Source of the DNA: an uncultured Gammaproteobacteria bacterium
Lineage (GTDB): Bacteria > Patescibacteriota > Patescibacteriia > 2-01-FULL-39-33
Direction of reading: 5' to 3'
DNA: 64,000 bases
Assembly: GCA_964573235.1 (NCBI GenBank)
Contig: CAZNIV010000002.1
Coordinates: 6,102 to 70,101, forward strand
How positions within the stretch are numbered: the first letter of the stretch is position 1; every line of letters starts with the position of its first letter. Of this stretch, positions 21,937 through 62,755 are shown piece after piece. The notes under the pieces were generated by a model. The model saw only the letters and a program-made list of their open reading frames with translations, was not told the origin of the DNA and did not search any database. Both the position numbers and the translations under genes were made by a program.

Positions 21937-22022
21937 AAACGGGCGATAAATATGATTTAAACAAGGTTAATTTAACATAAAATTGGGTTTTTTTCAATTA
22001 AAACGAAACGAAAGCGCTAGTA

Positions 22023-22051
22023 TTGACAATTTAGCCAAATTAAACTAAGAT
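22023..22051 (+). promoter_or_regulatory. Sigma70-type promoter for island A gene 1 (TTGACA-17-TAAGAT)
   Basis: -35 at 22023-22028, 17-nt spacer, -10 at 22046-22051. Confidence 0.5.
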
Positions 22052-22110
22052 ATTCCTCACGTACATTACAGCGAATTAACGCCAACCAACCGGAAAGGAT
22101 ACATGAGTGT

Positions 22111-22491
22111 ATGTGTAAAAACGCACTTTTGTTTCTCTTTTCCCTGATTCTGATTTTTTCGTGGTTTTCTGCGGTAATTGCGACAAAAGTGATTCCGAGC
22201 CAATCCGGCACTGTCACTTTCGTTCAATCCAGCGACCACGAGCTGAAATTTACCCCGTATTTTCCCAAATCGGAGCGTGACCCTCAACCGTCACTCGCCG
22301 TTTTGCCAGAAGAACCGGTAAAAATCAACAAAATCAGACACCTTCCACCAAGCAAAATCGCGTACAAAGCGAAAACTTGGGCGGATGAAAACAGGGAAAT
22401 TCCAGGGTTTTTGACTCTGCCGGGCCCGGCACGCAACAAAGATCCGTGTTGCCAAGAGGCACGGAAACTTGTAGTCTCGACACGGACCTAG
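22111..22491 (+). CDS. Island A gene 1: secreted 126-aa protein of unknown function (GC-rich, foreign codon usage)
   Basis: Signal-peptide-like N-terminus MCKNALLFLFSLILIFSWFSAVIA; GGAAAGGA SD at 22092-22099; CTG/CCG/GCG-rich codons unlike flanking host genes; terminator follows. Confidence 0.5.
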   Translation: MCKNALLFLFSLILIFSWFSAVIATKVIPSQSGTVTFVQSSDHELKFTPYFPKSERDPQPSLAVLPEEPVKINKIRHLPPSKIAYKAKTWADENREIPGFLTLPGPARNKDPCCQEARKLVVSTRT

Positions 22492-22520
22492 CAGAGAAAA
22501 ACAAGAGTCTGTGCCTCTCC

Positions 22521-22546
22521 AGCGCCATAACATGGCGCTTTTTTAT
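22521..22546 (+). terminator. Intrinsic terminator after island A gene 1
   Basis: 8-bp stem agcgccat/atggcgct with 3-nt loop, followed by TTTTTTATTT. Confidence 0.6.
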
Positions 22547-22591
22547 TTGTCTAAATTTAAACAATTTAATTGATTTTAAAACCAAAATATA

Positions 22592-22620
22592 TTGACAACA
22601 TAACTTTTATGTGGTATAAT
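22592..22620 (+). promoter_or_regulatory. Perfect-consensus sigma70 promoter for island A gene 2 (TTGACA-17-TATAAT)
   Basis: -35 at 22592-22597, -10 at 22615-22620. Confidence 0.65.
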
Positions 22621-22663
22621 ACAGAAGTCGTACATTTAACCGCAACCTCAACTGGAGGATCTC

Positions 22664-22768
22664 ATGAAAGACCTCGTCTTTGTGCTGGCCGTCGGAGTGA
22701 TCTTCGTTTTCATCAAAATCATGAAAGTGCTCCTTGGTGAAAACAAGCAGGCGAAAAAACCCGCTTGA
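22664..22768 (+). CDS. Island A gene 2: 34-aa hydrophobic single-helix peptide MKDLVFVLAVGVIFVFIKIMKVLLGENKQAKKPA (type-I-toxin-like or small membrane peptide)
   Basis: GGAGGA SD at 22654-22659, 4 nt before the ATG; GC-rich codons; sits between the consensus promoter and the terminator. Confidence 0.55.
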   Translation: MKDLVFVLAVGVIFVFIKIMKVLLGENKQAKKPA

Positions 22769-22794
22769 ACACCTCAACCGCCACCACAACCAAA

Positions 22795-22823
22795 AGGCCC
22801 CCGCTGATCACGGAGGCCTTTTA
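22795..22823 (+). terminator. Intrinsic terminator after island A gene 2
   Basis: ggcccccg / cggaggcc stem with palindromic loop tgatca, then a T-run. Confidence 0.6.
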
Positions 22824-22867
22824 ACTTTTATCCTATTTTATAATGTAATATATAAAATTTAGCAAAA

Positions 22868-23266
22868 CTATTTAACAATATAACTACATTTATTCTCGCT
22901 GCAAATAGCACTCAACTTATCCGATGCATCATCTAAATAATATTGGCACACACCACACGCGATACCATTTTCACATTTCTTTCTCTCTAAAGAATCCCAA
23001 TAAGTAACATACTTTTTATTTATTACCTCCAGACAACCACAGCACTCTTTAGAATCAGCGAATGCGCAATCTTCCTTAGTAACACAAGAAAGCAACTCTT
23101 CGCGATCTTTTGGTATCAAATAACCCACGGGCACTTTAGATGAATCTATTTGCTTGCCAGTCATTTGAGTGGGGATACCATTATTTATTATTAAAAAATA
23201 AGTAATCACACCGACTAAAACAATAATAATAGCGCTCAAAATTAAAACTAAACTTTTTTGCTTCAT
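22868..23266 (-). CDS. Small membrane-anchored cysteine-rich protein (host)
   Basis: 132 aa; N-terminal TM (LVLILSAIIIVLVGVITYFLII) then about 10 Cys; AT-rich codons. Confidence 0.5.
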   Translation of the reverse strand: MKQKSLVLILSAIIIVLVGVITYFLIINNGIPTQMTGKQIDSSKVPVGYLIPKDREELLSCVTKEDCAFADSKECCGCLEVINKKYVTYWDSLERKKCENGIACGVCQYYLDDASDKLSAICSENKCSYIVK

Positions 23267-23334
23267 ATTTTTATTGATTTATAAATTATTATGTTCTCTT
23301 TATTTGAACTATTTTGATATCCAAATTTTATTCC

Positions 23335-26187
23335 CTACTTTATACTCAATAATTTCTTTAAATACTGACCGGTATAACTATCCTTAACTTTCGCCACATC
23401 CATTGGTGTACCCGAAGCTACTAACTTACCACCAGCCACGCCACCTTCGGGACCTAAATCAATAATCCAATCCGCCGCCTTAATCACATCTAAATTATGT
23501 TCGATCACTAAAATTGAATTACCTTTATCCACCAAGCGATGTAACACTTGCAACAAACGACTAATATCATCAAAATGTAAACCGGTCGTTGGCTCATCCA
23601 AAATATATAAGGTCTTACCTGTTGGACGACGAGATAACTCGGTCGCCAACTTAACTCTTTGCGCTTCACCACCAGATAAAGTAGTCGCACTTTGGCCTAA
23701 ACGCAAGTAACCCAAGCCCACCTCTTCTAAAATCGATAATTTATCAATTACCTGAGGCTCATCAGCAAAAAACTTCTTCGCTTCCGCCACCGACATATCC
23801 AAAACATCGGCAATATTTTTATCTTTATAATGAATTTCTAAGGCATCCTGATTATAGCGCTTGCCATGACATGCTTCACACTCGACAAATACATCAGGCA
23901 AAAATTGCATTTCAATTTTTACATAACCATCGCCGGAACAATTTTCACAACGGCCACCACCTTTAACATTAAAGCTAAAATGACCTTGTTTAAAACCACG
24001 CATTTTACTTTCTGGTAACTCAGCATACAAATCACGAATGTAAGTGAATACACCAGTATAAGTGGCAGGATTAGAGCGAGGAGTGCGACCAATTGGCGAC
24101 TGATCAATGTCAATTACCTTGTCTAAATTTTCTAAACCACGCACTTCTTTATGTTTGCCTGGCAAATCACGAGTACGATAAAACCTATTAGACAAAACTT
24201 TAGTTAAAATTTCACTCATTAAGGTAGATTTACCAGAGCCAGAAACGCCCGTGACGCAAACCAATTTACCTAACGGAATTTTAACATCAATATTCTTTAA
24301 ATTATGTTCCGTGGCACCAATAATTTCAATGTTTTTACCATTACCTTGGCGATAAGACTTGGGCAAAGGAATACATTTTTTGCCGGATAAATATTGACCA
24401 GTTAAAGATTTTTTATCATTTTTTACTTCTTCAAAAGTGCCTTCAGAAACTACTTCGCCACCTAAGCTGCCCGCCCCTGGGCCAATATCAATTACATGAT
24501 CAGCTGATTGCATCATTTGTTCATCGTGCTCTACCACAATTACCGAATTGCCCTTATCTCGCAAGCGTTTTAACGCTTCAATTAACTTAGCAGTATCGCG
24601 CGCATGCAAGCCGATTGAAGGTTCATCAAGCACATAAGTAACTGATTCCAAACCGGAACCAATTTGCGTGGCTAATCTAATTCTTTGCGATTCACCACCG
24701 GCTAAAGTATTAGCACTGCGAGACAAAGTTAAATAATTCAAACCGACTTGTTGTAAAAAGATTAAACGCTTATCTACTTCTTTAATAATTTGTTTAGCAA
24801 TCTTGCCTTCACGCGATTCGCTCTTCCACTTTCTAGATAATTCATCAAATAATTTAGCCAAACTATCAATATCCAAATCAGTCATATCAGCAATCGACAA
24901 ATTATTGATTTTAATCGCCAAACTTTCTGGACGCAATTTGCGACCTTGGCAAGTGGGACAGGTAGAAACACGCATGTATTCCTCAAGAGTTTTCTGCATG
25001 TATTCACTCTTGGCTTCTAAATATTTTTCATTCAAAAATTCAATCACGCCCGGAAATTTTACCGTTGTACCTTCAACCACATATTCTTCTTGACCAGTAC
25101 CTTTCATAATCAATTCAAAAACTTTGTCGGATAATTCCGCCACCGGCACATTCAAACTAAATTTATATTTTTTCGCCACCACCTCTAACAACTTCATGTT
25201 GCTATTTTGAGAAGAAAAATTTCTGGACCAAGGCTTAATCGCGCCTTCGGCTAAAGTTAAACGCTTATTGGGAATAATTAATTCCGGATCCGGAATTAAA
25301 CGCGTACCTAAACCACGGCAAGCCGGACAAGCGCCAAAAGAAGAATTAAAAGAAAAAGAATGCGGTTCAATCTCCGGCAAGCTTATGCCACAATTGCGAC
25401 AAACATAATATAAATTAAAATTATGTTCTTGATTAGTTTCTGGCAAAAAGATATTAATAAATCCGTTACCAAAATCCAATGCTAAGTTAATCGTTTTTTC
25501 TAAGCGTTGCCAATTAACATCTTCTACTTTTTTGGCTTTAGTTTCTGAAGTCAGCGTAACAGTATCCACTAAAATTTCAATAGTATGACTAATATTTTTA
25601 TCAATCTCTAATTTTTTTGCTTCCGTAATATTATAAAAATTGCCATCGATGCGTAACAGTTCGTAATTAGCTTTATCGATCGCTTCAATTTGTTTAGTGT
25701 GAGAACCTTTTTTATTCATGACTACTGGCGCCAAGATTTGCATTTTCACGCCTTCCTTCCAGGTAGTAATCGTATCTAAAATTTGCTTTGGAGTTTGACG
25801 CTCTACTTTTTGCCCACATTTATGACAAAATACTTCGCCGATGCGCGCATAAAGCAAGCGCAAATAATCATAAATTTCTGTGACTGTACCCACAGTAGAG
25901 CGTGGATTAACCGAAGATGATTTTTGATCAATGGCAATGGTTGGCGATAAACCATCGATACTATCGACATCTGGCTTATCCATCAAATCTAAAAATTGCT
26001 TAGCATAAGAAGATAAGCTTTCGGCGTAGCGTCTTTGCCCTTCAGCATACAGCGTATCAAAAGCTAACGAAGACTTGCCAGAACCAGACAAACCAGTGAT
26101 AACCACCAATTTATTTTTGGGGATTTCTAGCGAAACATTTTTTAAATTATTAACTCGCGCACCCTTGATCGTGATCTTATCGGTCAT
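23335..26187 (-). CDS. uvrA: Excinuclease ABC subunit A
   Basis: Two ABC ATPase modules ([14 protein letters not shown]; [10 protein letters not shown]), zinc-finger Cys clusters, 950 aa. Confidence 0.95.
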
Positions 26188-26283
26188 GGGAATAAATTAT
26201 TTATCGCTAATAAAAAAGATAACCCCCATTTTACAATAATAAAGCCACCGTGTCAAATACCCGTAAAGGTTATTTTGAAAATT

Positions 26284-26322
26284 AAAAAAGGTGCCCCATC
26301 GACTTGTGGTCGACGAGCACCC
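26284..26322 (-). terminator. Intrinsic terminator after island B gene
   Basis: Minus-strand hairpin ggtgctcgtcgac...gtcgatggggcacc followed by TTTTTT; a second smaller hairpin lies at 26331-26357. Confidence 0.5.
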
Positions 26323-26369
26323 GTAAACAAGAACTGAGTGGGGAGGAACTCAGCCCCTGCTTCGATATT

Positions 26370-26930
26370 TTATCTGGATTTAACGAGCAATTCTCCGGCT
26401 TTGATGGGTGGGTCTTCTTTGAGCCCTGCATCATGCCGAAAACGCCCATAAATATCAGTGACTTTGGCATCAGTGATATCACTCTGCCCACAACGCTGAC
26501 AGCGACTACTGGCATTTGCTAAATTAATAGCCATTTGCCAATAGCGCTCTTTACTTGCCTCCTCTTGTGCCGTTACCGCCCAAACCTTTTGGCGATTATA
26601 AACAACACAAGCAACAACCACGGCCAACATCATAGCGGTAAACGTCATGCCCACTAAGTGACGATGATGTCGCACCCAGCGCTTGGCTAACACCCAAGTG
26701 ACAACCGTCGGGTAAGCCACCATCAGAGTTAAGACTACCGGCCAAGCCAATAAGTCTTTAAACCGAATCAACGACTGGTTGCACTGAAGCTTTTTTTCGT
26801 TTTGCCGATGATTGCCCCAGCATTTTTGCATGTAATCCAGCTGAGTCGCGCTAACAATATGGTTATCTACGCGATCAGTTGGCACTGTGTCACTGCTCCA
26901 CGGGACAAAGGGGTGACAGATTTTCATCAT
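26370..26930 (-). CDS. Island B: 186-aa protein with two TM helices and a Cys/His-containing C-terminal domain, unknown function
   Basis: AAGGAGGA SD at 26945..26938, 7 nt before the ATG; GC-rich E. coli-like codons; TM segments WPVVLTLMVAYPTVVTWVL and LVGMTFTAMMLAVVVACVV. Confidence 0.55.
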   Translation of the reverse strand: MMKICHPFVPWSSDTVPTDRVDNHIVSATQLDYMQKCWGNHRQNEKKLQCNQSLIRFKDLLAWPVVLTLMVAYPTVVTWVLAKRWVRHHRHLVGMTFTAMMLAVVVACVVYNRQKVWAVTAQEEASKERYWQMAINLANASSRCQRCGQSDITDAKVTDIYGRFRHDAGLKEDPPIKAGELLVKSR

Positions 26931-27022
26931 AGAAACATCCTCCTTGGGTTGTGGTTGACTGATAAATTATCATTATATAAACAGCTCTAAGCTGATTGAT
27001 AAGGTACGATAAATAACTCATT

Positions 27023-27051
27023 AGTATTTCATATTTTACCACTTTTGTCAA
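27023..27051 (-). promoter_or_regulatory. Promoter for island B gene (TTGACA-17-AATACT), -35 overlapping the divergent truD -35
   Basis: Minus-strand TTGACA at 27051..27046; -10 at 27028..27023. Confidence 0.4.
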
Positions 27052-27073
27052 CCCAACTCAAATTTGATATAAT
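27045..27073 (+). promoter_or_regulatory. truD promoter TTGTCA-17-TATAAT; the transcript would be essentially leaderless
   Basis: -10 ends at 27073 and the ATG is at 27083; there is no SD. Confidence 0.45.
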
Positions 27074-27082
27074 AAATATATT

Positions 27083-28462
27083 ATGGAAGATTTTTTAACT
27101 ATCTTAGCGAAACAAAAAAGTTTTTTAGATAAACTGCAAAAAGAGCAGCCGTCTTTATTTACTATTGAACAAATTTTAGATGAAGAAACAACTTTAAAAA
27201 ATATTGGCATCACCACCTTAAGCAATAATCGCCCTGATGGCTATATTAAATTATATCCCCAAGATTTTATTGTGGAAGAGGTTCGTCAAAATGGCACTAT
27301 TAGTGTCATTGAACCAAAAGATGATTTTCCCCTGGCACAAGACGGCAAAAAAACTTTATATTGCAATTTAGTTAAAGCTAATGTTTCTACTATTGATGCC
27401 ATTGCTCGGTTAGCCAAAGCACTTAATCTGGCGCCAGAAAAAATTGGCTATGCTGGTATTAAAGATAATCAAGCTATTACTAGCCAACTAATCGCCTTAC
27501 CTAATATTAACGCTGGTCAAATCACCAGACTAAAAACGGAAAGCTTTTTTTTAACCAACTTTTATTATGGCACCGGCTCACTAAATGTGGCTGATTTAAC
27601 TGGTAATTCATTTACTATTCTAGTGCGTACCAAAGAAAAAATTGATCAGGAGCATTTAAAGCGGGAATTCAAAAAAATAAAAGATAACGGCTTTTTAAAT
27701 TTTTACCAAACTCAACGCTTTGGCACTCCGCGCTTAATTGGCCACCACTTAGGTAAAATGATTTTGCAAGGCAACTATGAGCACGCCATTAAAGCTTTTT
27801 TACTTTACTCCAGTATTCATGATTTAAAATTAGTGCGCATGATTCGCACCGAAGCGCAACAACTTTACGGTTATTGGGATAAAATGAAAAAAGTTTTTGC
27901 TTCTATGCCTGTTACTTTTCAACATGAACTAAAAATCTTATCTCACCTAGAGCAACACCCCCAAGATTTTATTGGTGCTTTACACGCCGTAAAAGATCAA
28001 AGCACTTTATGGATTTATGCTTACCCCAGTTATTTATTTAATTTATTACTTTCCGAGAATCAAAATAATTTACCACCAGAACTGCCTTTACTATTAAATG
28101 ACAATGAAAAAGATATAGCCTTATATCAAAATTATTTAACGCGTGATGGTATTACTAATTTTGCTAAAGCATTAAAACCATTTAAGTTCATTCAGCTTAA
28201 GCGTCGTTTAACGCCAACCCGTGTATATCCTAAAAATATTATGTTTATGTCGACGGATGAGGGTGTGATTTGTCATTTTGATTTGGATAAAGGTTCTTAC
28301 GCTACTTCATTTTTGATGAACTTATTTAAATTATCTAACGGGTTACCTTATCCGGCTTGGACTAAAAAAACACCTTGTGATATTAAAAAATATCTACAAT
28401 TAGGCACTAATGCCGAGGTAGTTAAGAGATTGGGTGATTATATAAAAAGAGAGCAAGTTTAA
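27083..28462 (+). CDS. truD: tRNA pseudouridine(13) synthase TruD-family protein
   Basis: GYAGIKDNQAITSQ and FGTPRLIGHH motifs typical of TruD/Pus7; 459 aa. Confidence 0.7.
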   Translation: MEDFLTILAKQKSFLDKLQKEQPSLFTIEQILDEETTLKNIGITTLSNNRPDGYIKLYPQDFIVEEVRQNGTISVIEPKDDFPLAQDGKKTLYCNLVKANVSTIDAIARLAKALNLAPEKIGYAGIKDNQAITSQLIALPNINAGQITRLKTESFFLTNFYYGTGSLNVADLTGNSFTILVRTKEKIDQEHLKREFKKIKDNGFLNFYQTQRFGTPRLIGHHLGKMILQGNYEHAIKAFLLYSSIHDLKLVRMIRTEAQQLYGYWDKMKKVFASMPVTFQHELKILSHLEQHPQDFIGALHAVKDQSTLWIYAYPSYLFNLLLSENQNNLPPELPLLLNDNEKDIALYQNYLTRDGITNFAKALKPFKFIQLKRRLTPTRVYPKNIMFMSTDEGVICHFDLDKGSYATSFLMNLFKLSNGLPYPAWTKKTPCDIKKYLQLGTNAEVVKRLGDYIKREQV

Positions 28463-28478
28463 TTTTAAAATACCATAT

Positions 28479-28523
28479 AAAAAGTTTTAGAGCTCCAAAT
28501 CGACATAGTCGACGCGGAGCTCT
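28479..28523 (-). terminator. Hairpin terminator downstream of island C gene 1 (nested SacI-SalI-SacI palindrome)
   Basis: 8-bp stem agagctcc/ggagctct around a 19-nt loop; a T5 run follows on the minus strand. Confidence 0.4.
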
Positions 28524-28550
28524 TGGTTTGTGAGGCTGGGCTTACCTCAG

Positions 28551-29135
28551 TTATTTGACGCAGGAGAAATGAACACTGCCCGCGGTGTCCATGGAGATAC
28601 CCATGTGGTTGATCTCCTCCAACTTGTAGCAATCAGCCGTCCGGGAATGGGACGGGTTAATGGTGATCGAGCGATCCGGGTTGTCGAAAACATGGACAAA
28701 CTCGAACACTCGCTCCATGATCGCCTGGATGGCAACTTCCGCCTCCTTGCTCAGCTGAACGGGTTCACCGTCAGCAAAGTTCAGATACAGAAAGCTCATG
28801 TGATCTCCGGCCTTCTTGATGATGTTGGTGCCAATCAGGTTGAACCCGATCGCCTTCATCTCGGCCATAATGCGATCGAACGAAATCATCGTCCAACCCG
28901 TGGGCCCCCAACCAGTGCGGGGCTTGCCGGAATCAGCCTGGCGATTGCCGGCCGCGTCCGTGCGATTGCCACGGAACGCATCCTTGCCAAGCTGCTCGGC
29001 CTGAAACGCGTGATTCTCGATGATCTCGCGCTGTTTGGCCTGACTCAGCACGGCCTTGGCGATACCACCAACCTTGCGAAGCTCTTCAGCGGCGGAGTCG
29101 GCAATACGGACACGAATCAGAATTTTGGTAACCAT
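28551..29135 (-). CDS. Island C gene 1 (194 aa), unknown function
   Basis: AGGAGA SD; its own consensus promoter; strongly GC3-biased codons (ctg, cgt, gcc, ggc, atc, aag). The overlapping plus-strand 225-aa ORF is rejected. Confidence 0.65.
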   Translation of the reverse strand: MVTKILIRVRIADSAAEELRKVGGIAKAVLSQAKQREIIENHAFQAEQLGKDAFRGNRTDAAGNRQADSGKPRTGWGPTGWTMISFDRIMAEMKAIGFNLIGTNIIKKAGDHMSFLYLNFADGEPVQLSKEAEVAIQAIMERVFEFVHVFDNPDRSITINPSHSRTADCYKLEEINHMGISMDTAGSVHFSCVK

Positions 29136-29213
29136 TTTTTTCTATCTCCTGTTTGTTGGGCATTATTGCCCGTTGTTGATGTACGATACACTTACTTGTA
29201 CAAGTGACCCATT

Positions 29214-29242
29214 ATTATAGCACACATCGCCAAAAATGTCAA
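29214..29242 (-). promoter_or_regulatory. Perfect-consensus sigma70 promoter (TTGACA-17-TATAAT) for island C gene 1
   Basis: Minus-strand -35 at 29242..29237 and -10 at 29219..29214; the 5'UTR carries the palindrome GGGCAttatTGCCC at 29158-29171. Confidence 0.65.
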
Positions 29243-29334
29243 TACATTTGACCTTATTTTACCCTATTTTAGCTATTTTAAACCAAATTTAGCCAAAATA
29301 AAAAGCCCCACTTATTGCAGGGCGTAAAGATTAC

Positions 29335-29820: not shown

Positions 29821-29844
29821 TACTACTCCTTACGATTGAGTGTT

Positions 29845-29867: not shown

Positions 29868-29888
29868 AAAATTGTCACCATCGCAATG

Positions 29889-31407: not shown

Positions 31408-31415
31408 ATCTTAAT

Positions 31416-54442: not shown

Positions 54443-54452
54443 TTTAGAACAA

Positions 54453-55586
54453 TTAAACTTTTTCAAAAATATGAATGCGTCTTTGCACTTTCTGCCCTTC
54501 ACGCTTATACAATAAAGTATTGTCATCAATACGCCTAAAACCCATTTCTTGCACTTCTTCGTCAATTTTAATGGCTACGCGACCTTCAGTTACTTGCCAT
54601 TCAGGAAACACCATCACCACTTTGCCACCCGGATTTAAAATTTTAATAAATTCCTTAAATGCATCAACATAAAGCTTTAATAAATCATGAGCAATCTTTT
54701 GCGCTTCACGCAACTGAGGTACGCCACGCATTGGTGGCCCTAAAAATGGCTCAGTCACAATCGCCTGAATATTTTGCACCCGACTGCTAATCTGACGCAC
54801 ATCAGCGCTCAAAACTTCGTAATTAGCATCGGTTAAACCAAACTCATCTTTAACCCAAGCCAAATTAGTTAAAGTGTCTTTATAAGCGCGATCAGAAATA
54901 TCAGCACCAATCACTTTGCGATAACCCATAGCCATCGCTTCCATTAAAACTGTACCAGAACCGCAAAACGGATCCAAAATTGTATCATCATCATCTTCTA
55001 AGCAAGCTAAGTTGATCATCATCTTACAAAGTTTTGGTGGTAACATGCCGCTTTTAGCATCGGCCGCTGGGCGACCAAAATCTTTAAAACCATATTCTTC
55101 AAAATCCTGTACTGCCTCAGTTACCCCAAGGTAACCAGGGAACACCAAAAAGTCAGTCACTTTTTCTTTAGTTACAATAACTGAAGATAAAGTTTTTTGT
55201 TTACTCACTACTAAACGACTAGAAATATCTTTTTCTTTTAAAGCGTTTTTTACTTCCATACCAATCTTGCGATTTTCTGGCACACCGTAAAAACTAAAAC
55301 CAAATTTAGCCTTACCACCAATATTGCGCGTCATAATTTCTTCAACAATCACCGGCACCTCTAGGGTTTCGCCCAAAACTCGGCCAATCTTAATCGTGCC
55401 ACCTAATTGCTGAATTAAGCCTTTAGGTTCGATATTTTCAGTTTCTACCACTAAAAAATCTTTGCCCTCCGCTAATGACTTAACATTTGTTAAAACAGAA
55501 TAAATTTCGGCCTTAGATAACTCTGGATTATTGCCCAAAATAAAGATAAATTTCATAGTCTTACTTATTTCTAATGGCTTTATCAT
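54453..55586 (-). CDS. SAM-dependent RNA (m2G-type) methyltransferase, Trm11/RlmL-like
   Basis: DPFCGSGT motif I and EPFLGPP motif IV; N-terminal substrate-binding domain. Confidence 0.6.
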   Translation of the reverse strand: MIKPLEISKTMKFIFILGNNPELSKAEIYSVLTNVKSLAEGKDFLVVETENIEPKGLIQQLGGTIKIGRVLGETLEVPVIVEEIMTRNIGGKAKFGFSFYGVPENRKIGMEVKNALKEKDISSRLVVSKQKTLSSVIVTKEKVTDFLVFPGYLGVTEAVQDFEEYGFKDFGRPAADAKSGMLPPKLCKMMINLACLEDDDDTILDPFCGSGTVLMEAMAMGYRKVIGADISDRAYKDTLTNLAWVKDEFGLTDANYEVLSADVRQISSRVQNIQAIVTEPFLGPPMRGVPQLREAQKIAHDLLKLYVDAFKEFIKILNPGGKVVMVFPEWQVTEGRVAIKIDEEVQEMGFRRIDDNTLLYKREGQKVQRRIHIFEKV

Positions 55587-55821
55587 AGCAAAAATAAGCT
55601 AAAAGCGCCACCCTTGATCTTTTTGTTTATTTATGCTATCATTATCTCACTTTAAAAACACCTTTCCCACCTGCGCTAGTCGCGGGAGTATCTTCCGGAA
55701 AACGGAAGAAAAGGCAATTTTCTCAAAAGTCATTTTTGGCCGGATCACGCTTTCGGCGAAAAATATAAAACCTTGAGGCTTGCCTTGAGGTTTTTTAAGT
55801 TTTAATTAACTATACCCGAGT

Positions 55822-56337
55822 ATGAACAATTATGAATTGCTCTACATCGTCTCCAACCAATACACCGAAAAGGAATTGGTAACCATCCAGGAGAAAGTCA
55901 ACGCTTTGATTACCAAGCTTGGCGGCCAAGTGCACTACAAAGATTTCATGGGCAAGAAAAAACTTGCTTATCCAATCGATAAAATGTTACATGGCTATTA
56001 CACTGTTTGTGAATTTGAAATCACCGACAACAACAATGTCAAAGAATTAAGTGAAAACTTAAGATTAGACAAAGAAGTCTTACGCCATATCATCATTGCT
56101 AAGGCTAAAATCACCCCTGATGAAATTAAGAAAAAAGAAGAAATGAAAAAGCGCGAAGAAGCTGATGAAAGAGAAGCTTCCCGCCCAGTTGCTCGTGAAC
56201 GCCGTTTTGAAGATAAAGAAACTCCAACACCTACTCCAGTAACTGAAGAAAAAGTTGAAGAAAAGAAAGCTAAAGTTAAAACTAAAGCTTTAGATGAGAA
56301 ACTTGATGAAATTTTAAAGGAAGACACTGTCGTCTAA
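55822..56337 (+). CDS. rpsF: 30S ribosomal protein S6 with an acidic/lysine-rich C-terminal extension
   Basis: MNNYELLYIV... S6 fold; extension of about 70 aa. Confidence 0.9.
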   Translation: MNNYELLYIVSNQYTEKELVTIQEKVNALITKLGGQVHYKDFMGKKKLAYPIDKMLHGYYTVCEFEITDNNNVKELSENLRLDKEVLRHIIIAKAKITPDEIKKKEEMKKREEADEREASRPVARERRFEDKETPTPTPVTEEKVEEKKAKVKTKALDEKLDEILKEDTVV

Positions 56338-56365
56338 CTAAATTCAGTCACTCATAACCAAAAAT

Positions 56366-56800
56366 ATGAACTTAAACAAAGTGATCATTATCGGCAACTT
56401 GACTCAAGCGCCAGAAATGAGAACTACCACTAATGGTAATAATGTCGCCTCATTCGCCATTGCAACTAATCGCGTTTGGAAAGATCAGGCTGGGCAAAAA
56501 CAACAGAAGGCAGAATTCCACAGCATTGTCGCTTGGGGTAAACTAGCCGAAATTGCCGGTCAATACCTAACCAAAGGCCAGCTTTGCATGGTAGAAGGAC
56601 GATTAGAAACCCGCAGTTGGGATGACCAGGAAAGCAAGCGCCACTGGAAAACAGAAATTATCGCTGAAAACTTTCAGATGGGCCCTAAAACTGGAGAAAA
56701 GATGGGCGACGAACCAGTTATGACTGCCGTTTCCAGTTCTAAACCCGCTTCCCGCAAAAACGATGAGGAAGAAATAAAAATTGAAGACATCCCATTTTAA
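56366..56800 (+). CDS. ssb: Single-stranded DNA-binding protein
   Basis: OB fold and the C-terminal DIPF tail. Confidence 0.9.
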   Translation: MNLNKVIIIGNLTQAPEMRTTTNGNNVASFAIATNRVWKDQAGQKQQKAEFHSIVAWGKLAEIAGQYLTKGQLCMVEGRLETRSWDDQESKRHWKTEIIAENFQMGPKTGEKMGDEPVMTAVSSSKPASRKNDEEEIKIEDIPF

Positions 56801-56818
56801 TTAATTTGAATCGCATTT

Positions 56819-57046
56819 ATGGAAAAGAATAAATTGAACCAAAAAGAGCGTTATTGCTTTTTCTGTGTCAACGGCATTGACCAAATCGATTACAAGAACA
56901 CCAATTTATTAAGAAGATTTATCTCTTCTTATTCTAAAATTGTTTCTCGTAAGAGAAGCGGCGTTTGCTCTTTGCACCAGAGAAAATTGGCTATGGCCAT
57001 CAAGCGCGCTAGAATTATGGCTTTCTTGCCATTTATTACCCGTTAA
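56819..57046 (+). CDS. rpsR: 30S ribosomal protein S18
   Basis: CFFC...YKNTNLLRRFIS... conserved S18 core. Confidence 0.9.
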   Translation: MEKNKLNQKERYCFFCVNGIDQIDYKNTNLLRRFISSYSKIVSRKRSGVCSLHQRKLAMAIKRARIMAFLPFITR

Positions 57047-57067
57047 TAAATAAGTCAGCCAAGATAT

Positions 57068-57637
57068 ATGATGCTCGGTACTCTTAATGATATTAAAAAA
57101 GGCGTTAAGCTTTTACACGAAAACGAGCCATACGTAGTGATGGAATCTAATTTTGTGAAAATGTCGATGCGCAAGCCGGTGATGCAAACCAAAATGAAAA
57201 ATTTGCTCAACGGTAAGGTGGTAGAAATCAATTATCACCAAGGTGATAAAATGGAAGAAGCCGATATGATGAAAAAGAAAGTTGATTACCTTTATAATGA
57301 TGGTGACAATTATTTTTTCATGAGCCAAGATGATTTTGAGCAATTTTCTTTGCCAAAAGAAAACTTAGGCGCCGTTACCGGCTACATCAAAGATGGTGAT
57401 AAAGTTGATGCTTTATATTTCAACAATGTCGCTGTTTCTATTTCCGCCGCTCCAAAAGTAGAATTGAAAGTGATTTCCGCCCCAGAAGCTGTCAAAGGCA
57501 ACTCGGCTAGCGGTCGTACTACTAAAATGGTTACCATGGAAACTGGATTAGAATTGGCGGTGCCAATTTTCATCAAAGAAGGTGAAATTCTTCGCGTCAA
57601 CACCGAAACCGGTGAATATGTAGAAAGAGCGCAGTAA
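57068..57637 (+). CDS. efp: Elongation factor P
   Basis: KPGKG-type loop region; 189 aa. Confidence 0.9.
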   Translation: MMLGTLNDIKKGVKLLHENEPYVVMESNFVKMSMRKPVMQTKMKNLLNGKVVEINYHQGDKMEEADMMKKKVDYLYNDGDNYFFMSQDDFEQFSLPKENLGAVTGYIKDGDKVDALYFNNVAVSISAAPKVELKVISAPEAVKGNSASGRTTKMVTMETGLELAVPIFIKEGEILRVNTETGEYVERAQ

Positions 57638-57703
57638 AAAACTTTTTACTAGCTAATAACAAAAACCGCCCTAGTGGCGGTTTTTGTATTGACTAAATTT
57701 ATT

Positions 57704-58801
57704 TTACTCACTTAAATCAGCTGCTTCTCCGGCTTCGAGCGGTTGCTCGGCGGGATTAGAACTATTTAATTCCGCCATAGTAGCGGCTTTCTGTTTTTTA
57801 AATTCTTCCCAAACCTTTTCTTTAATTGAATCAATTAAATGACGATTAGCCCGCAAATGATTTTTAGCATTTTCTCGGCCAACGCCCAATTTTTCTTCAC
57901 CAAAAACATAACTATTACCTTGCTTTTTAACAATACCAGCAATTACGCCTGTATCCAAAGCATCACCAGCAATAGAAATACCTTCATTGTACATGATATC
58001 AAATTCGCAAGTGGTAAATGGCGGAGCCACTTTATTTTTAACCACTTTAACCTTAACGCGATTACCAATAATCTTTTCACCTTGCTTAATTTGAGCGCTA
58101 CGTCTAACCTCAATACGCACTGAAGAATAAAATTTTAACGCAGTACCACCGGTAGTAGTTTCTGGATTACCAAAAACAATACCAATTTTCATACGAGTCT
58201 GGTTAATAAAAACCAAAACTACATGACTCTTAGAAATAGCTGAAGTTAACTTTCTAAGTGCTTGACTCATCAACCTAGCTTGCAAGCCCATGTGCTGATC
58301 ACCCATATCGCCCTCAATTTCTGCTTTTGGCACCAAGGCAGCCACGGAATCGACAACAACCACATCCACTGCATTAGAACGCACTAAAGTTTCTACGATT
58401 TCTAAAGCTTGCTCACCGGTGTCTGGCTGGGAAATAAACAAATCCCTAATATTAACACCGATTTTTTGAGCATACTCTGGATCTAAGGCATGTTCTGCAT
58501 CCACAAACGCCGCTACACCACCCATTTTTTGCACTTCGGCCACAATATGCTGAGCCAAAGTAGTTTTACCAGAAGCTTCAGGTCCAAAAATCTCTACGAT
58601 TCTACCTCGTGGAACACCACCAGCTCCTAACGCAAGATCGAGGGACAAACAACCAGTCGGCACAACCTCTACCTGCATTGTTTTTGCTTCCCCTAAGCGC
58701 ATAATAGCTCCATCACCAAAACGCTCTTTAATTTGGTCAATAGCGGCATTTACGGCTTTCATCCTTTCGGCCAAAGCCTCATTTTCTCCTTTTTTCCCCA
58801 T
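57704..58801 (-). CDS. recA: Recombinase RecA
   Basis: GPEASGKTT Walker A, L1/L2 loops. Confidence 0.95.
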
Positions 58802-58816
58802 ACTTTATTAAAATTA

Positions 58817-59464
58817 TTAATCGGTGTATAAAACTCGAAGATTAACTTCATTTTCTCTACCGTGTCTCTTCTTCGCAGTTATTTTAATTAAATTCAAACC
58901 TTTTTGCAAGTCAAACTTAGTACCAAAGTTTCCATCATTATCTACAAAAATTAAGCGATTATTAATAAAAATTTCTGCCTCCTTTTCTGACTGACCAACT
59001 AAATCCATTTCTTTAACGCTAGTTTTAAAGCCGTCGGGCGGAAAACTGATTTTTAATTCTGGGGGCGTAAAAATATTTACCACCTTAACCACTAAAAAAA
59101 CAGCCACCGCTACTGCCAATAAACTAATTAAAAAATAACGAATCAATTTGGGCCAAGGTAAAAAATATTTATGATCCACTTTTGCAAAAGAATGTTTTTC
59201 GTTACAACCAATGTGTTTAGCTTCTTCCCAAAACTCATTACACGACAAACCCAAATACTGACAATAAATAGTTAAGTAATTACGCAAATATGCCTGACCA
59301 GGCAAATCACTAAAACGATCATTTTCTAAGGCTTCTAAATATTTGAAAGCCACGCTCAATTCGCGAGAAGCCTGTTCTAAGCCAACACCTAAGTCAGAAC
59401 GAGCCGCCTGTAGGCGTTCACCAATACTAAGCGGCCTGATATTTTTAGAATTATTTACTGACAT
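58817..59464 (-). CDS. RodZ-like HTH/transmembrane protein
   Basis: N-terminal XRE-type HTH, single TM, C-terminal beta-rich domain. Confidence 0.55.
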   Translation of the reverse strand: MSVNNSKNIRPLSIGERLQAARSDLGVGLEQASRELSVAFKYLEALENDRFSDLPGQAYLRNYLTIYCQYLGLSCNEFWEEAKHIGCNEKHSFAKVDHKYFLPWPKLIRYFLISLLAVAVAVFLVVKVVNIFTPPELKISFPPDGFKTSVKEMDLVGQSEKEAEIFINNRLIFVDNDGNFGTKFDLQKGLNLIKITAKKRHGRENEVNLRVLYTD

Positions 59465-59467
59465 GAA

Positions 59468-62236
59468 TTAAGTCCATTCATCATCATCAAATTTAGATTT
59501 TTTACTTTCTTTTTTAACCGTATTGTCATCATGATCATCTGTTACTGCTTTAATTTCTCTTGATGGTAATTTAATACCCTTTTTAATAATCGCCTCTTCT
59601 AAGATTTTATCGGCTTCAGTCTCTTCCATGTCACCTTCTTCTTTTTCATCTTCTGCTTCTTCTGTTTTTAATTCCTCTTCTGCCTCTGATGCATCTGCTA
59701 TTTTTTCAACCTCTTCTTCTACGATTTCTTCGGCTTCTTCTTGAACCTCCTCTTCTTCTTGCGCTAACTCATCCGTAATAACGCCGGCTTCTTCATTTTG
59801 TTCTTTATCAAATACCCTCATATCTAAGCGACCACTACCAATGTTTTCATCATTATCCTCTTCAGCTATTTCTTCAAAATTATTGCCCGAATTAATAATA
59901 GTGGCTTCTATTGGCTCAGCCCTTTTAAATATGGTTGGCGTAGGAATTTCTTTTAACTCACCGGTTAAATTATGTTCTTTGGCGGCAAATTCTAACGCAT
60001 CCACACCACCTAGCGCATCTAAAAATACTTCGCGTGGCTTAGCCCCATCAGATGCCCCAATTATTCCTTTTTCTTCTAATAAATCCAAAATACGAGCCGC
60101 TCTTGAATAGCCAATCTTTAATCTTCTCTGCAATAACGAAGCTGAGGCCTTGCCGGCTTCTCTAATTACTTGCTTTGCCTCACTCAATAAATCATCACCG
60201 TCATCAGCACTAGAAAAATCAGCAATCCCCAAACCACCAGATGCCTGTTTATCAACCATTAAAGAATCAACAAAATCACTGCCGACTTGCTTTTTAATAC
60301 AATCAACAACATTTTTAATTTCTTCATCCGCCAAAAACACACCTTGAATGCGTTTAGGCTTAGCCGTTTCTGGACCGATATATAACATATCACCACGACC
60401 CACTAATTTCTCAGCACCAGAAGCATCTAAGATAGTACGGGAATCCATTAAGGATACAACGGAAAAAGCAATACGAGCCGGAATATTTGCTTTAATCAAG
60501 CCGGTAATTACTTCTACCGATGGGCGCTGGGTAGCTAAAATCAAATGAATACCCACTGCGCGCGCCATCTGCGCGATACGCACAATCAGCGCTTCCAAAT
60601 CTGCTCCAGCCGAACCCATTAAATCGGCTAACTCATCAATCACATAAACGATGTATGGCAATTTATCATTTGGCTCGGCCTGATTAAATGTTTCTATGTT
60701 ACGATAACCCTTTTTGGATAATAATTCAAAACGACGCTCCATTTCAGAAATACCCCACTTTAAAGAATTGATGGTTTTTTTAACATCCGTAATAACCGGG
60801 GTAAGCAAATAAGGCAAACCATTATAAATTGGCAACTCCACACGTTTAGGATCAACCAAAATAAATTTTAATTCATCTGGAGAATTTTCATACATCAAAG
60901 AAACAATGATCGAATTAATACAAACCGATTTACCAGAACCAGTTGCACCGGCAATCAAACAATGAGGCATGCGATCTAGGCGAGCAAAAATACAATTACC
61001 ACTGACATCCTTACCCAATGCCATTTGTAAATTATTGGAACGATTTTTATATTCTTTACTCATCAATAAATCACGCATTGTTACTTTGGCTTGAATCTGG
61101 TTAGGAATTTCGATACCCACTAATGCCTTACCCGGAATAGGCGCCTCAATGCGCAATGGATAAGCTGCTAACGCCAAAGATAAATCATTATTTAAAGTAA
61201 CAATTTTTGATAACTTAACACCATCAGCCGGACGGAAAGTATATTGCGTAACCGTTGGGCCAACATGAACATCACTCATCTCTAAGGGGATGCCAAAATT
61301 ACTTAAAGTCTTTTTGATAATTTCCTGATTGCGTGCAATGTCTCCAGAAGTTGGCTTGCCTGATTTACTAGTCAAAACATCAAACGGAATATTAATTTTT
61401 TTACCAAATTTTTTTGGCTTAGCAATTTCTTCTACTTTTTCAGTCACTACTACTTGCTCTTTTACTTCTGGCTTAGCGTTGGCCAATGGCATTGCCTTGA
61501 ATTGCGACATTTCTTCTTCCTCTTCTTCGGCCGCCTCTTCTAATTCTGCTTCAACCTCTTCTGCATTTTCTTCTTCATAATCCTCATCATCTACTTCTTT
61601 TAATTTTTCTTTAGCATGACTAAAAAAATGATTAGCCTTATCGACTAAATACTTAAATAAACGAACTGGCCACATTAAGCCGTATATAGAAGTTTCAAAA
61701 GTTAACAAAACACCAACCAAAAAGATAGCGATTGCCACTACTAACGCACCCCAAAAACCCATGTACTTTAATAACAATAAGGAATTAAGCCAAGCACCTA
61801 TGTAGCCACCGCCTTGACTAGCCCAAGCCGCCGCATCAGCACCATCAATACCATATTGTAGATGAGATAATGAACCCAAGCCTAGAATCAACATCAGGCC
61901 ACCAATATAATTTACAATTTTAACTTCATATTTTCCTAACCACAAAAAATAAACCAAGGTGGCGATTAAAATCGGAAACAACCATTTCATCCAGCCAAAG
62001 GTAATACCCAAAAACCAAGCAATAGCTCGGCCAAATTCACCCGACAAATCAAATAGACCCAAAAAACTCAACAAACCAATAACCACTAAAAAAATAATAA
62101 AAATTCCTTTCTTAGTTTCTGCGCTTAGGTTATGAATTTTTTCGGAAATCTTTTCTACTGGCCCCTCTTTGCCCCCGTGATTATTTCCATTATTAAAAAA
62201 ACTTAAAATACCTCCCTTTTTCTTCCCCTTTGACAT
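59468..62236 (-). CDS. ftsK: DNA translocase FtsK/SpoIIIE
   Basis: N-terminal TM domain, acidic linker, AGATGSGKS Walker A, gamma domain. Confidence 0.9.
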   Translation of the reverse strand: MSKGKKKGGILSFFNNGNNHGGKEGPVEKISEKIHNLSAETKKGIFIIFLVVIGLLSFLGLFDLSGEFGRAIAWFLGITFGWMKWLFPILIATLVYFLWLGKYEVKIVNYIGGLMLILGLGSLSHLQYGIDGADAAAWASQGGGYIGAWLNSLLLLKYMGFWGALVVAIAIFLVGVLLTFETSIYGLMWPVRLFKYLVDKANHFFSHAKEKLKEVDDEDYEEENAEEVEAELEEAAEEEEEEMSQFKAMPLANAKPEVKEQVVVTEKVEEIAKPKKFGKKINIPFDVLTSKSGKPTSGDIARNQEIIKKTLSNFGIPLEMSDVHVGPTVTQYTFRPADGVKLSKIVTLNNDLSLALAAYPLRIEAPIPGKALVGIEIPNQIQAKVTMRDLLMSKEYKNRSNNLQMALGKDVSGNCIFARLDRMPHCLIAGATGSGKSVCINSIIVSLMYENSPDELKFILVDPKRVELPIYNGLPYLLTPVITDVKKTINSLKWGISEMERRFELLSKKGYRNIETFNQAEPNDKLPYIVYVIDELADLMGSAGADLEALIVRIAQMARAVGIHLILATQRPSVEVITGLIKANIPARIAFSVVSLMDSRTILDASGAEKLVGRGDMLYIGPETAKPKRIQGVFLADEEIKNVVDCIKKQVGSDFVDSLMVDKQASGGLGIADFSSADDGDDLLSEAKQVIREAGKASASLLQRRLKIGYSRAARILDLLEEKGIIGASDGAKPREVFLDALGGVDALEFAAKEHNLTGELKEIPTPTIFKRAEPIEATIINSGNNFEEIAEEDNDENIGSGRLDMRVFDKEQNEEAGVITDELAQEEEEVQEEAEEIVEEEVEKIADASEAEEELKTEEAEDEKEEGDMEETEADKILEEAIIKKGIKLPSREIKAVTDDHDDNTVKKESKKSKFDDDEWT

Positions 62237-62304
62237 ATAAAATTAATTGAGAAAATAGTACATTAATAACTTAATTTTAACACCTTTAGGTAAGAAAATC
62301 AAAA

Positions 62305-62331
62305 TTAAAAAAGCGAGGGTGATTCCTCGCT
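62305..62331 (-). terminator. Intrinsic terminator after island G gene
   Basis: agcgagg-gtgattc-cctcgct followed by TTTTTT on the minus strand. Confidence 0.6.
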
Positions 62332-62349
62332 TGATAAAACTGCCAAACC

Positions 62350-62559
62350 CTATCGGTTCAAATGGGTTTTGATCGGCGCTGACTCGTGCTTCTTCTGAAT
62401 GTTCTTGTCTAAGCCGTAATATTCAGAAGCCAAAATCATACAAATAGTTACTATCACCACTGCCGGCAAAGCCAAGAACTGAAACCAAAGCTCAAACCTG
62501 GTCATTTTGCTGGTGTTTTTCATCCAACCAACCCTTGCTCTCCTGAAAAAAGTACACAT
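62350..62559 (-). CDS. Island G: 69-aa small single-TM membrane protein, unknown function
   Basis: GGGGGAGGA SD 7 nt before ATG 62559 (MCTFFRRARVGWMKNTS...); TM FLALPAVVIVTICMILA; codons more GC-rich than host. Confidence 0.5.
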   Translation of the reverse strand: MCTFFRRARVGWMKNTSKMTRFELWFQFLALPAVVIVTICMILASEYYGLDKNIQKKHESAPIKTHLNR

Positions 62560-62624
62560 AAAAGAATCCTCCCCCACTTACCGTTTTGTTTAGCACTATA
62601 AAGAACACAACTTAATGACTAAAA

Positions 62625-62653
62625 AATATATCATATTTTAGCGATATTGTCAA
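62625..62653 (-). promoter_or_regulatory. Promoter TTGACA-17-TATATT for island G
   Basis: Read directly from the sequence. Confidence 0.5.
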
Positions 62654-62755
62654 TAATCATAACAATTTAATAAAGTATATCATAATTATCTTTACCAAAA
62701 AAGCTTTTTAGGAGTAAAATGATTATATCAACTAATCAACCCCCCAATATAACAT

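Follow-up and report, generated by a model that had tools for sequence, protein, structure and literature searches.

GC-rich, Shine-Dalgarno-led gene islets in a Patescibacteria chromosome: candidate accessory cassettes at conserved intergenic slots

Seven islets and their expression signals

We analysed 64,000 nucleotides of DNA from an uncultured bacterium (contig CAZNIV010000002.1 of assembly GCA_964573235.1, positions 6,102 to 70,101 of the forward strand), and this whole stretch is referred to below as the window. Between its chromosomal housekeeping genes lie seven small islets, A to G, whose neighbours are leuS, uvrA, truD, POR, glyA/folD, ychF and the rpsF operon. Each islet is 0.4-2.3 kb long and holds one to three genes; together they make up about 12% of the window, the units being dispersed over 40 kb. 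The eleven open reading frames (ORFs) that an earlier reading of the letters, here called the original prediction, had placed in these islets all exist, and the coordinates given below for A2 and G are refined ones. The general layout is the same throughout: a TTGACA hexamer, a 17-nt spacer, a -10 hexamer, a leader of about 37-150 nt, a Shine-Dalgarno sequence (SD) 5-9 nt before the ATG, the ORF, and a terminator.

An SD was counted where 5 nt or more matching AAGGAGGT lay 4-20 nt upstream of the start. By this measure all eleven islet genes have one and not a single host gene out of 38 does (Fisher p = 3e-11), and when the whole window was scanned for a strong SD followed by a start codon, the genuine gene starts that were flagged belonged solely to islet genes. 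A canonical SD at every islet gene and its absence from host genes had both been predicted, and both hold; no equally strong host SD turned up. Right before the SD, seven of the eleven islet leaders carry a CA-rich tract of the CAAC(C/A)A type, which occurs at 0 of 38 host genes (p = 4e-6). Most islet leaders fold no better than shuffled sequence, the exceptions being those of F (z -2.8) and C1 (z -2.5).

The promoters are similarly confined. Ten of the twelve intergenic TTGACA hexamers lie in front of islet genes. The statement that in ten units this hexamer stands exactly 17 nt from the -10 is correct for nine of them, an 18-nt spacer being preferred in E2, while the perfect TATAAT of A2, C1 and D and the lack of a promoter of its own in C2 are as described. 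The -10 is often preceded by TGTG(C). Promoter matches of at least 11/12 were counted in three 20-kb stretches (1-20000, 21900-41899 and 44001-64000, leaving out 20001-21899 and 41900-44000), and six of the eight found there belong to islet genes; the total number of promoter-like sites in these stretches is at chance level. At the other end of the units, a hairpin with a T-run follows each of the eleven genes, with energies between -11.7 kcal/mol (C2, the weakest) and -23.3 kcal/mol as opposed to a host median of -5.9 kcal/mol, in agreement with the predicted terminator downstream of each unit. Most of the top-scoring terminators in the window, like most of its top-scoring promoters, are those of the islets. 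We take these promoters, SDs and terminators to be probably active as such.

Islet A lies on the forward strand and consists of two units. The A1 promoter (22023-22051, TTGACA-17-TAAGAT) is followed by a gene (22111-22491) for a protein of 126 aa with a hydrophobic N-terminus that is signal- or anchor-like by eye; its GC content at third codon positions (GC3) is 0.51, its SD is GGAAAGGA, and its terminator hairpin and T-run are at 22521-22544. The A2 promoter (22592-22620) is a 12/12 match, TTGACA-17-TATAAT with a TG extension, and the A2 gene (22664-22768, GC3 0.63, SD GGAGGA, terminator at 22796-22822) codes for the 34-aa hydrophobic peptide MKDLVFVLAVGVIFVFIKIMKVLLGENKQAKKPA.

Islets B and C are both on the reverse strand. 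B has a promoter at 27023-27051 (TTGACA-17-AATACT), a gene at 26370-26930 for 186 aa with two hydrophobic segments and a C-terminal CxxC, both seen by eye (GC3 0.49, SD AAGGAGGA), and a terminator of -20.5 kcal/mol at 26284-26321. Its -35 (TTGACA, reverse strand) is overlapped by the -35 of the truD promoter (27045-27073; TTGTCA, forward strand), the two sharing bases 27045-27051 in a back-to-back divergent arrangement. In islet C, the C3 promoter (30468-30496, TTGACA-17-TAAACC with TGTG upstream) serves a gene at 29889-30395 (168 aa, GC3 0.59, SD GGGAGGA), and the C3 terminator (29845-29867) is located directly upstream of the SD (AAGGAG) of the promoterless C2 (29335-29820, 161 aa, GC3 0.53, terminator at 29300-29323). 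The C1 promoter (29214-29242) is again a 12/12 match, TTGACA-17-TATAAT with a TGTGC extended -10, and is followed by a structured 72-nt leader, the C1 gene (28551-29135, 194 aa, GC3 0.71, SD AGGAGA) and a terminator of -23.2 kcal/mol (28490-28522).

Islets D and E are also on the reverse strand. D has a 12/12 promoter (46286-46314), a gene (45914-46201, GC3 0.61, SD GAGGAGGA) for 95 aa that are rich in Cys and His by eye (CLLC...HVCNDKC), and a terminator at 45847-45872. In islet E, the E2 promoter (51332-51361, TTGACA-18-AATAAT) precedes a gene for 321 aa (50308-51273, GC3 0.57, SD AAGGAG) whose terminator (50250-50286) abuts the -35 of the E1 promoter (50219-50247, TTGACA-17-TAAAAG). E1 (49202-50155) codes for 317 aa with a GC3 of 0.51 and has the SD AAGGAGGA; its terminator (49155-49184) is a bidirectional hairpin common to the 3' end of folD.

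Islet F, on the forward strand, has the promoter TTGACAAA...TGTGCTATACT (53378-53406) and a leader of about 148 nt (53413-53560, SD AAGGAGGAG) with a minimum free energy of -44.5 kcal/mol (z -2.83). None of 200 shuffled sequences folds as well; the leader begins with a 5'-terminal hairpin, has no match in Rfam, and may be regulatory or stabilising. The F gene (53561-54343, with an alternative ATG at 53504) codes for 260 aa at a GC3 of 0.74, and is closed by a hairpin of -23.3 kcal/mol at 54366-54393 and a second hairpin with a T-run at 54420-54433. Finally G, on the reverse strand, has a promoter at 62625-62653 (TTGACA-17-TATATT), a gene for 69 aa with one hydrophobic segment by eye (62350-62559, GC 0.42, GC3 0.57, SD GGGGGAGGA) and a terminator at 62307-62330. 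The promoter regions of B and G (27012-27051 and 62614-62653) are 75% identical over 40 nt (TTGACAA...TAAAATATGA.ATA), which may reflect a common operator or a common origin.

Several features of the host genes were seen along the way. The first genes of host operons lack an SD and have, about 5-10 nt ahead of the ATG, a TATAAT-like hexamer (as seen in front of 27083, 43531 and 47088); this placement suggests that leaderless mRNAs are widespread in the host. The leuS gene (18724-21936, reverse strand) contains an inserted serine-hydrolase / alpha-beta-hydrolase domain (residues 452-622; PF06821, E 2e-16) that separates the editing domain from the remainder of the catalytic core. Its 3' part contains, at 18826-19231, an exact tandem duplication of 201 bp x 2, i.e. 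67 codons in frame at 100% identity, that could be very recent or an assembly artefact. Two giant ORFs on the reverse strand, 2426-5443 (1005 aa) and 5461-14661 (3066 aa), are Pfam-less, AT-rich and host-like in composition and have no SD; they probably encode surface proteins.

Composition and natural provenance of the islets

In the sliding GC profile the first six islets have regional GC contents of 43.8, 45.5, 49.0, 49.9, 46.7 and 54.5%, and the remaining window has 37.3%. The picture of islands at about 50% GC in a mid-30s background is thus acceptable for six islets and fails for the seventh region (62300-62660), which reaches just 38.2%; in G it is the GC3 of the coding sequence that deviates. 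At the level of genes the separation is complete, since the GC3 values of the eleven islet genes (0.49-0.74) and the 38 host genes (0.23-0.44) occupy disjoint ranges (Mann-Whitney p = 6e-7). Codon choice is clearly different as well. The share of CTG is 0.28 in the islets and 0.02 in the host, that of TTA 0.08 and 0.52, that of CCG 0.51 and 0.20, that of CCT 0.02 and 0.26, and that of AAG 0.51 and 0.30, respectively. The usage that had been called E. coli-like is therefore a mid-GC usage, and it is accompanied by zero DNA similarity to E. coli genomes.

Host translational selection was considered as the source of this bias and rejected. The highly expressed host genes (ribosomal-protein genes, efp and recA) drift toward NNC codons plus AAA, GAA, CCA and GCT, while the islet shift at AAA/GAA/CCA/GCT goes in the opposite direction (r = 0.36); as the two shifts differ, selection of this kind does not explain the islet bias.

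The dinucleotide signature leads to the same partition. The Karlin distance delta* is 42 between two halves of the islet set, and each half is 145-150 away from the host, whereas the mean distance between equal-size chunks of the host and the host as a whole is 65 (95th percentile 114). TA has a relative abundance of 0.48 in the islets, compared with 0.86 in the host. The islets thus show every atypical trait by which horizontally acquired genes are defined compositionally (GC3, codon usage, genomic signature), and in GC3, codon choice and dinucleotide signature the islets are foreign to the host genome. The likeness of the two halves fits a common kind of source, as far as composition goes. 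Of the original description, "foreign" stands in this compositional sense; the further suggestions that the islets are engineered, recently mobilised or a single system do not.

The host itself is, judging from YchF, a member of the Patescibacteria (Candidate Phyla Radiation, CPR) of the Parcubacteria type, the closest YchF relatives, at 70-75% identity, being found in Buchananbacteria, Falkowbacteria and the Parcubacteria group. With TruD as query, the GTDB genomes yielded no close relatives of the host; in JGI metagenomes TruD matched the source organism alone and the E profile described below had no match. In an Rfam scan of the window and of the related loci we retrieved, tRNAs were the only hits, and no 16S rRNA was present.

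It is legitimate to ask whether islets of such textbook regularity, with consensus -35 and -10 elements, SDs, clean terminators and mid-GC codons, are an engineered insertion, or a chimera due to assembly or contamination. The gene of TruD, located between islets B and C, has the same neighbours in GCA_037133135.1 ('MAG: bacterium', locus tags WCL61) and in two ENA assemblies, with 99.98-100% identity across the junctions. Contigs of ERZ27300065, ERZ27300082, Logan SRR7053536, ERZ4201038 and JGI Ga0194054 contain islets B, D, E and F at 100% identity, and ERZ27300137 and ERZ27300010 also carry identical islets and junctions. In all, islet sequence including junctions was found in at least six independent environmental datasets from NCBI, ENA, Logan and JGI, comprising several runs and assemblies made by different groups with different assemblers. 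No islet match was found by megablast among 72,556 plasmids or 5,426 E. coli genomes, and none among the phage records discussed below. In addition, metagenome-assembled genomes (MAGs) of unrelated CPR bacteria from the environment contain the E family in the same architecture.

Contigs often end inside E2 or D, and this was examined as a possible population polymorphism. The unaligned tails turned out to be Nextera adapter (CTGTCTCTTATACACATCT), so the breaks are read-through artefacts of low coverage and neither polymorphisms nor chimeric joins. Five ENA MEGAHIT contigs (L002, L014, L016, L017 and L018) terminate in untrimmed Nextera transposase adapter (CTGTCTCTTATACACATCT...), and the contig breaks in those datasets are therefore technical. 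Given the identical junctions in independent datasets and the lack of plasmid, E. coli and phage matches, we reject the suggestion of engineering; engineering and chimerism are extremely improbable and can be considered excluded for practical purposes.

Islet proteins and recurrent cargo slots in related genomes

The absence of any recognised protein family, noted in the original prediction, was upheld for the ten islet proteins that were scanned (all except the 34-aa A2, which was left unscanned), none of which had a family match in Pfam, NCBIfam, PHROGs or PADLOC. In the case of PADLOC there was no match for the ten proteins at E <= 1, and the reading as an anti-phage defence system failed on this result. 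Clusters of the islet proteins at 90% identity have one to four members, every one of them from the source organism. A word-indexed search of 5.8e9 protein clusters gave nothing for E2 and the self-match alone for F. As to their nature, A1, A2, B and G are probably secreted or membrane peptides, D is predicted to be a small Cys/His-rich protein, and C1-C3, E1/E2 and F are predicted to be soluble. A role in cell-cell or conflict interactions of an epibiont is our guess.

E1 and E2 are distant paralogues (21-23% identity) with an internal duplication, and they are the islet proteins for which relatives were found. An exhaustive HMMER search of 1.84e9 representative proteins with the E profile returned 22 proteins at E <= 1e-3. 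E1/E2 can be aligned with about 20 representative proteins over about 200-300 residues (E-values 1e-14 to 1e-3); the profile match is significant over both repeats, the members have the motifs FWxxVxxEFP ... GLRxGWxVV in common, and the GW motifs are conserved. All named hits are from CPR bacteria (Ca. Paceibacterota / Patescibacteria, Saccharibacteria, Taylorbacteria), and a scan of GTDB genomes added two Saccharibacteria, one Taylorbacteria and one unclassified 'bacterium' MAG. The two proteins belong to a sparse, CPR-restricted two-repeat family of unnamed hypothetical proteins, with a patchy distribution across CPR classes. The AlphaFold2 (AF2) model of E2 has a pLDDT of 85.9, i.e. a confident fold, which is without a structural match, including in BFVD. 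Two syntenic orthologues, those of loci L011 and L012, have a dN/dS of 0.22 at a dS of about 1.0, meaning that the E-family proteins are real and constrained; the same pair also shows short-range vertical inheritance of the E gene.

In every other locus that we read, the E homologue is a solitary gene among housekeeping genes. About 100-150 nt upstream of it lies a TTGACA-type promoter, and the unit also has an intrinsic terminator and a CA-rich leader (caacaacaaac, ccacaaccaa, gaaaacaac). None of the other ten islet proteins is found within 6-10 kb of the E homologues in other CPR genomes. There is no evidence that the seven islets form one system, and the claim of one multi-gene system spread over several loci cannot be kept. 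Across CPR genomes with flanks of 29.5-62% GC, the GC content of the E gene departs from that of its flanks in both directions: it is 42% beside flanks of 29.5% in L007, 51% beside 41% in L008/L010, 57% beside 46% in L011, 59% beside 47.5% in L012, and 51% beside 62% in L006. TA is depleted relative to the flanks in all six of the E homologues tested elsewhere.

A second line of comparison starts from the position of the islets. Directly downstream of ychF, a Pfam-less GC-rich ORF (GC3 0.64-0.79) is present in the window (F), in L004, L005 and L023, and in the Falkowbacteria locus L022, the host GC3 of these genomes ranging from 0.25 to 0.64. The promoter type of F recurs downstream of ychF in the four related loci, in the form TTGACAAA-N10-(T/A)(G/A)TGCTATAnT. 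The cargo proteins (F and those of L004, L005/L023 and L022) have no significant mutual relation by phmmer, hidden Markov models (HMMs) or hhalign outside two pairs, L005-L023 (28% identity, although the genomes are close) and X245-Y258 of L022, and homology among the ychF-downstream ORFans was rejected save for these pairs.

L022 is syntenic with the window, with ELP3, glyA-folD, a block of cargo, dnaQ-like gene, ychF and cargo, a methyltransferase gene, and rpsF-ssb-rpsR-efp. The block from cargo to cargo is inverted in L022 relative to the window, and the cargo is different: 3' of the dnaQ-like gene lies X245 in L022 and E2-E1 in the window, and 3' of ychF lies Y258 in L022 and F in the window. 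Note that these slots are compared between family-level relatives and not between strains. The two cargo genes of L022 (8425-9162, reverse strand, and 12084-12860, forward strand) are paralogous (E 7e-26) and have GC3 values of 0.34 and 0.73, the genes of that genome being at about 0.25.

The division between SD-led and SD-less genes is also seen in the related loci, where Pfam-matched genes have no SD, and SD-led genes are nearly all Pfam-less ORFans with 'aacaaaaAGGAG'-type leaders. The promoter type and the CA-rich/SD leader recur before ORFans of other Patescibacteria and have the appearance of a native CPR expression mode for this class of genes rather than of an imported E. coli design.

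Other features near the slots are as follows. A DnaA-box-like sequence, TGTGGATAA (the reverse complement of TTATCCACA), is found just upstream of the cargo -35 in L004 (about 11545-11553) and L005 (about 10329-10337); a similar one is farther upstream in L022 (about 11820), and it is absent from the window. Between ychF and cargo, L005 (9656-10021) and L023 (4861-5220) have an AT-rich gene for a four-helix-bundle protein of the bAvd / 23S-rRNA-IVP-like type, with a GC3 of 0.24-0.29 in hosts of 0.55-0.64. It is a second foreign element at the ychF slot, and there is no reverse transcriptase nearby. In L004 (1972-3396) and L005 (5403-7114), SD-led ORFans, plus an SD-led deoC in L004, are interleaved with tRNA gene clusters.

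Origin of the cassettes and comparison with known systems

On balance we consider it probable, with modest confidence, that the islets are natural, autonomous, moron-like accessory cassettes whose source is a pool of ORFan genes exchanged horizontally, largely among CPR bacteria, and that they sit at conserved slots and use SD-dependent initiation. Each unit would be self-sufficient and insulated, consisting of a near-consensus sigma-70-type promoter (often TGTGnTATAAT), a leader, an ORF or ORF pair, and a Rho-independent terminator. Such insulation would let the units occupy gaps between housekeeping operons without polar effects, and would allow expression wherever they are inserted. Initiation would be leadered and SD-dependent in the islets, and SD-less, often leaderless, in the core genes. 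Since the coding sequences agree among the islets in GC3, codon choice and TA depletion and deviate from the host in all three, they most likely reached the genome horizontally, out of a pool of ORFan genes specific to CPR bacteria. The cassettes would then be kept or replaced at conserved intergenic slots, e.g. 3' of ychF and 3' of the dnaQ-like gene.

A number of observations weigh against this reading. Firstly, the 64-kb window gave no sign of transposon ends, of direct or inverted repeats beside the islets, or of an integrase (as regards the integrase, none was noticed among the ORFs, most host ORFs being without a family scan), and the sole tRNA of the window, at 37956-38039, is away from all islets. 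Secondly, an empty-site allele was not seen and a donor was not identified, so transfer is inferred from composition only. Thirdly, the GC-rich portion of each unit begins near the CA tract and the SD, the promoter and most of the leader being AT-rich and host-like. Fourthly, the largest protein collections were searched with E2 and F only, while for the other nine islet proteins the comparison covered the fetched loci, curated family libraries and, in the case of C1, the phage collection. Lastly, the E gene has no single fixed GC value; in five of seven genomes its GC content exceeds that of the flanks by about 10-12 points, and the E genes of L011 and L012 have a GC3 of 0.68-0.70 beside neighbours of 0.39-0.53 despite a dS of about 1.0. 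Simple amelioration hardly accounts for such retention, which hints at a constraint that is being maintained.

The last point speaks for the main alternative, in which the islet genes are a resident class, i.e. vertically inherited, fast-evolving, lineage-specific genes whose signals and GC-rich, TA-poor coding sequences are kept by selection for a distinct expression regime. That regime could be very high or conditionally SD-dependent translation, with mRNA stability via UA avoidance, and the foreignness would be functional and not historical. Besides the similar offset of the E genes in five genomes and the GC3 of about 0.7 that L011 and L012 keep after synonymous saturation and under purifying selection, several other facts agree with this explanation: the E-family architecture is conserved across CPR genomes of 29-62% GC, TA depletion is found in each of the six homologues, SD-led genes in related CPR loci are nearly all Pfam-less ORFans among core genes without SD, the positions 3' of ychF and dnaQ are conserved, and the leaders are mostly unstructured, as efficient initiation would need. 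It is at odds with the purine-ending and four-fold codon shifts, which run opposite to those of highly expressed host genes, and with the 62% GC genome (L006), in which the E homologue is GC-poorer than the host. The L022 paralogues with so different GC3 values in one genome, and the cargo that is unrelated between genomes at the same slot even in profile-profile comparison, also speak against it, as do the Pfam-less host ORFs of 3066, 1005 and 132 aa, which are host-like in composition and have no SD. We hold a resident class to be possible, if rather unlikely.

It is instructive to compare the proposed cassettes with known mobile and modular elements. A classical genomic island or integrative element was rejected, as there is no integrase, no tRNA-adjacent insertion and no flanking repeat. 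The claim that the islets were recently mobilised was not sustained either: besides the lack of integrase, repeats and transposon ends, two of the sites are conserved cargo slots and the E orthologues keep their high GC3 at a dS of about 1. Integron gene cassettes resemble the islets in as much as they are modular single-ORF units of mostly unknown function. The islets have no attC-like repeat, no integrase and no array, and they carry their own promoter and terminator whereas integron cassettes are promoterless. The integron reading was therefore also dropped; the 3' hairpins are unrelated GC stems with T-runs that form no shared repeat family, and the units are dispersed over 40 kb.

The resemblance to phage morons is closer. 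A moron is reportedly a promoter-gene-terminator unit of deviating composition, known from lambdoid and HK97-type phages. The islets are like morons in that a single gene or pair, unlike its neighbours in composition, lies between conserved genes and has a sigma-70 promoter and a factor-independent terminator to itself, and in that the roles of the products are accessory or unknown. The sequence predicts ten promoters and eleven terminators, and GC3 and dinucleotide signature both differ from those of adjacent genes. What is missing is the phage: the flanks are chromosomal housekeeping genes, and there is no match to PHROGs or to the phage collection.

This bears on the suggestion that the islets are leftovers of phages or mobile elements, that is, morons or cargo from decayed CPR phages, plasmids or integrative elements. 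The promoter-gene-terminator architecture and deviating composition that define classical morons, the small membrane or secreted products that are typical of lysogenic-conversion genes, and the SD-led ORFans of relatives that adjoin tRNA genes and the AT-rich bAvd-like gene are all compatible with such an origin. It is contradicted by the PHROG scans, which were negative for the ten scanned islet proteins and for nine of ten related ORFans, the tenth having one weak match to a family of unknown function (E 0.0035). Furthermore, F, C1 and the E profile found no relatives in IMG/VR, blastn and tblastn gave no match in 50,697 phage records or among plasmids, E2 had no fold match in BFVD, and no phage structural genes were noticed in the 64 kb any more than integrase or repeats, the islets lying at seven separate sites and not in one prophage. 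An origin from phages or other mobile elements is thus very unlikely in our view.

Replacement-type flexible genomic islets at conserved sites are known from streamlined bacteria such as Prochlorococcus and SAR11. The cassettes we propose are similar to them in the conserved positions (3' of ychF and 3' of the dnaQ-like gene) with differing, compositionally deviant cargo. They differ in being tiny (0.4-2.3 kb, 1-3 genes), in having full expression signals for each gene, and in that the CPR slots were compared among family-level relatives and not among strains. With respect to translation, genomes poor in SD with a few SD-led genes are known among the Bacteroidota, e.g. rpsU. Like these, and like Parcubacteria that have lost the anti-SD, the present genome has a core without SD (0/38) and a small special set with strong SDs; unlike in Bacteroidota, the SD-led set consists of GC-rich ORFans and not of a ribosomal-protein autoregulatory gene.

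One may go further and speculate that such genomes have two expression "languages", a leaderless, SD-less, vertically inherited core and a rapidly replaced pool of cassettes with a standard promoter, CA-rich leader, SD and terminator around a GC-shifted, TA-depleted coding sequence, in which the cassette from promoter to terminator would be the unit of exchange at slots such as those 3' of ychF and dnaQ, without integrase or repeats. We put this forward tentatively and regard it as doubtful. If it were true, SD-dependent translation would be reserved for an accessory class of genes, possibly under a conditional state of the ribosome.

Regarding the literature, an anti-SD motif was detectable in just 48% of Parcubacteria (Tsurumaki et al. 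2022, PMC9297842). The SD-less core of the present genome fits this report, which makes the SD-bearing islets the more notable. For aquifer Patescibacteria, up to 13% of genome length has been ascribed to horizontal gene transfer, of which 83% took place inside the phylum (PMC12455944); in the window, the islets cover about 12%. Our literature search found no paper on SD-led, GC-shifted ORFan cassettes or on ychF/dnaQ cargo slots in CPR bacteria. What stands out is that moron-like flexible-islet cassettes are found in a non-phage CPR chromosome, and that they are coupled to a split between core and accessory genes in initiation signals.

A large part of bacterial diversity belongs to the CPR/Patescibacteria, whose lineage-specific genes are for the most part without known function or regulation. 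If the pattern described here is general, it would offer a sequence-only route to the flexible gene pool of CPR bacteria, which is probably related to host interaction or conflict. It would also be a natural test case in which SD-dependent and SD-independent initiation occur together in a lineage half of which is reported to be without anti-SD, and it would supply compact natural expression parts for a phylum with almost no genetic tools. The cargo slots adjacent to ychF and dnaQ, in turn, are places where the turnover of genes can be studied.

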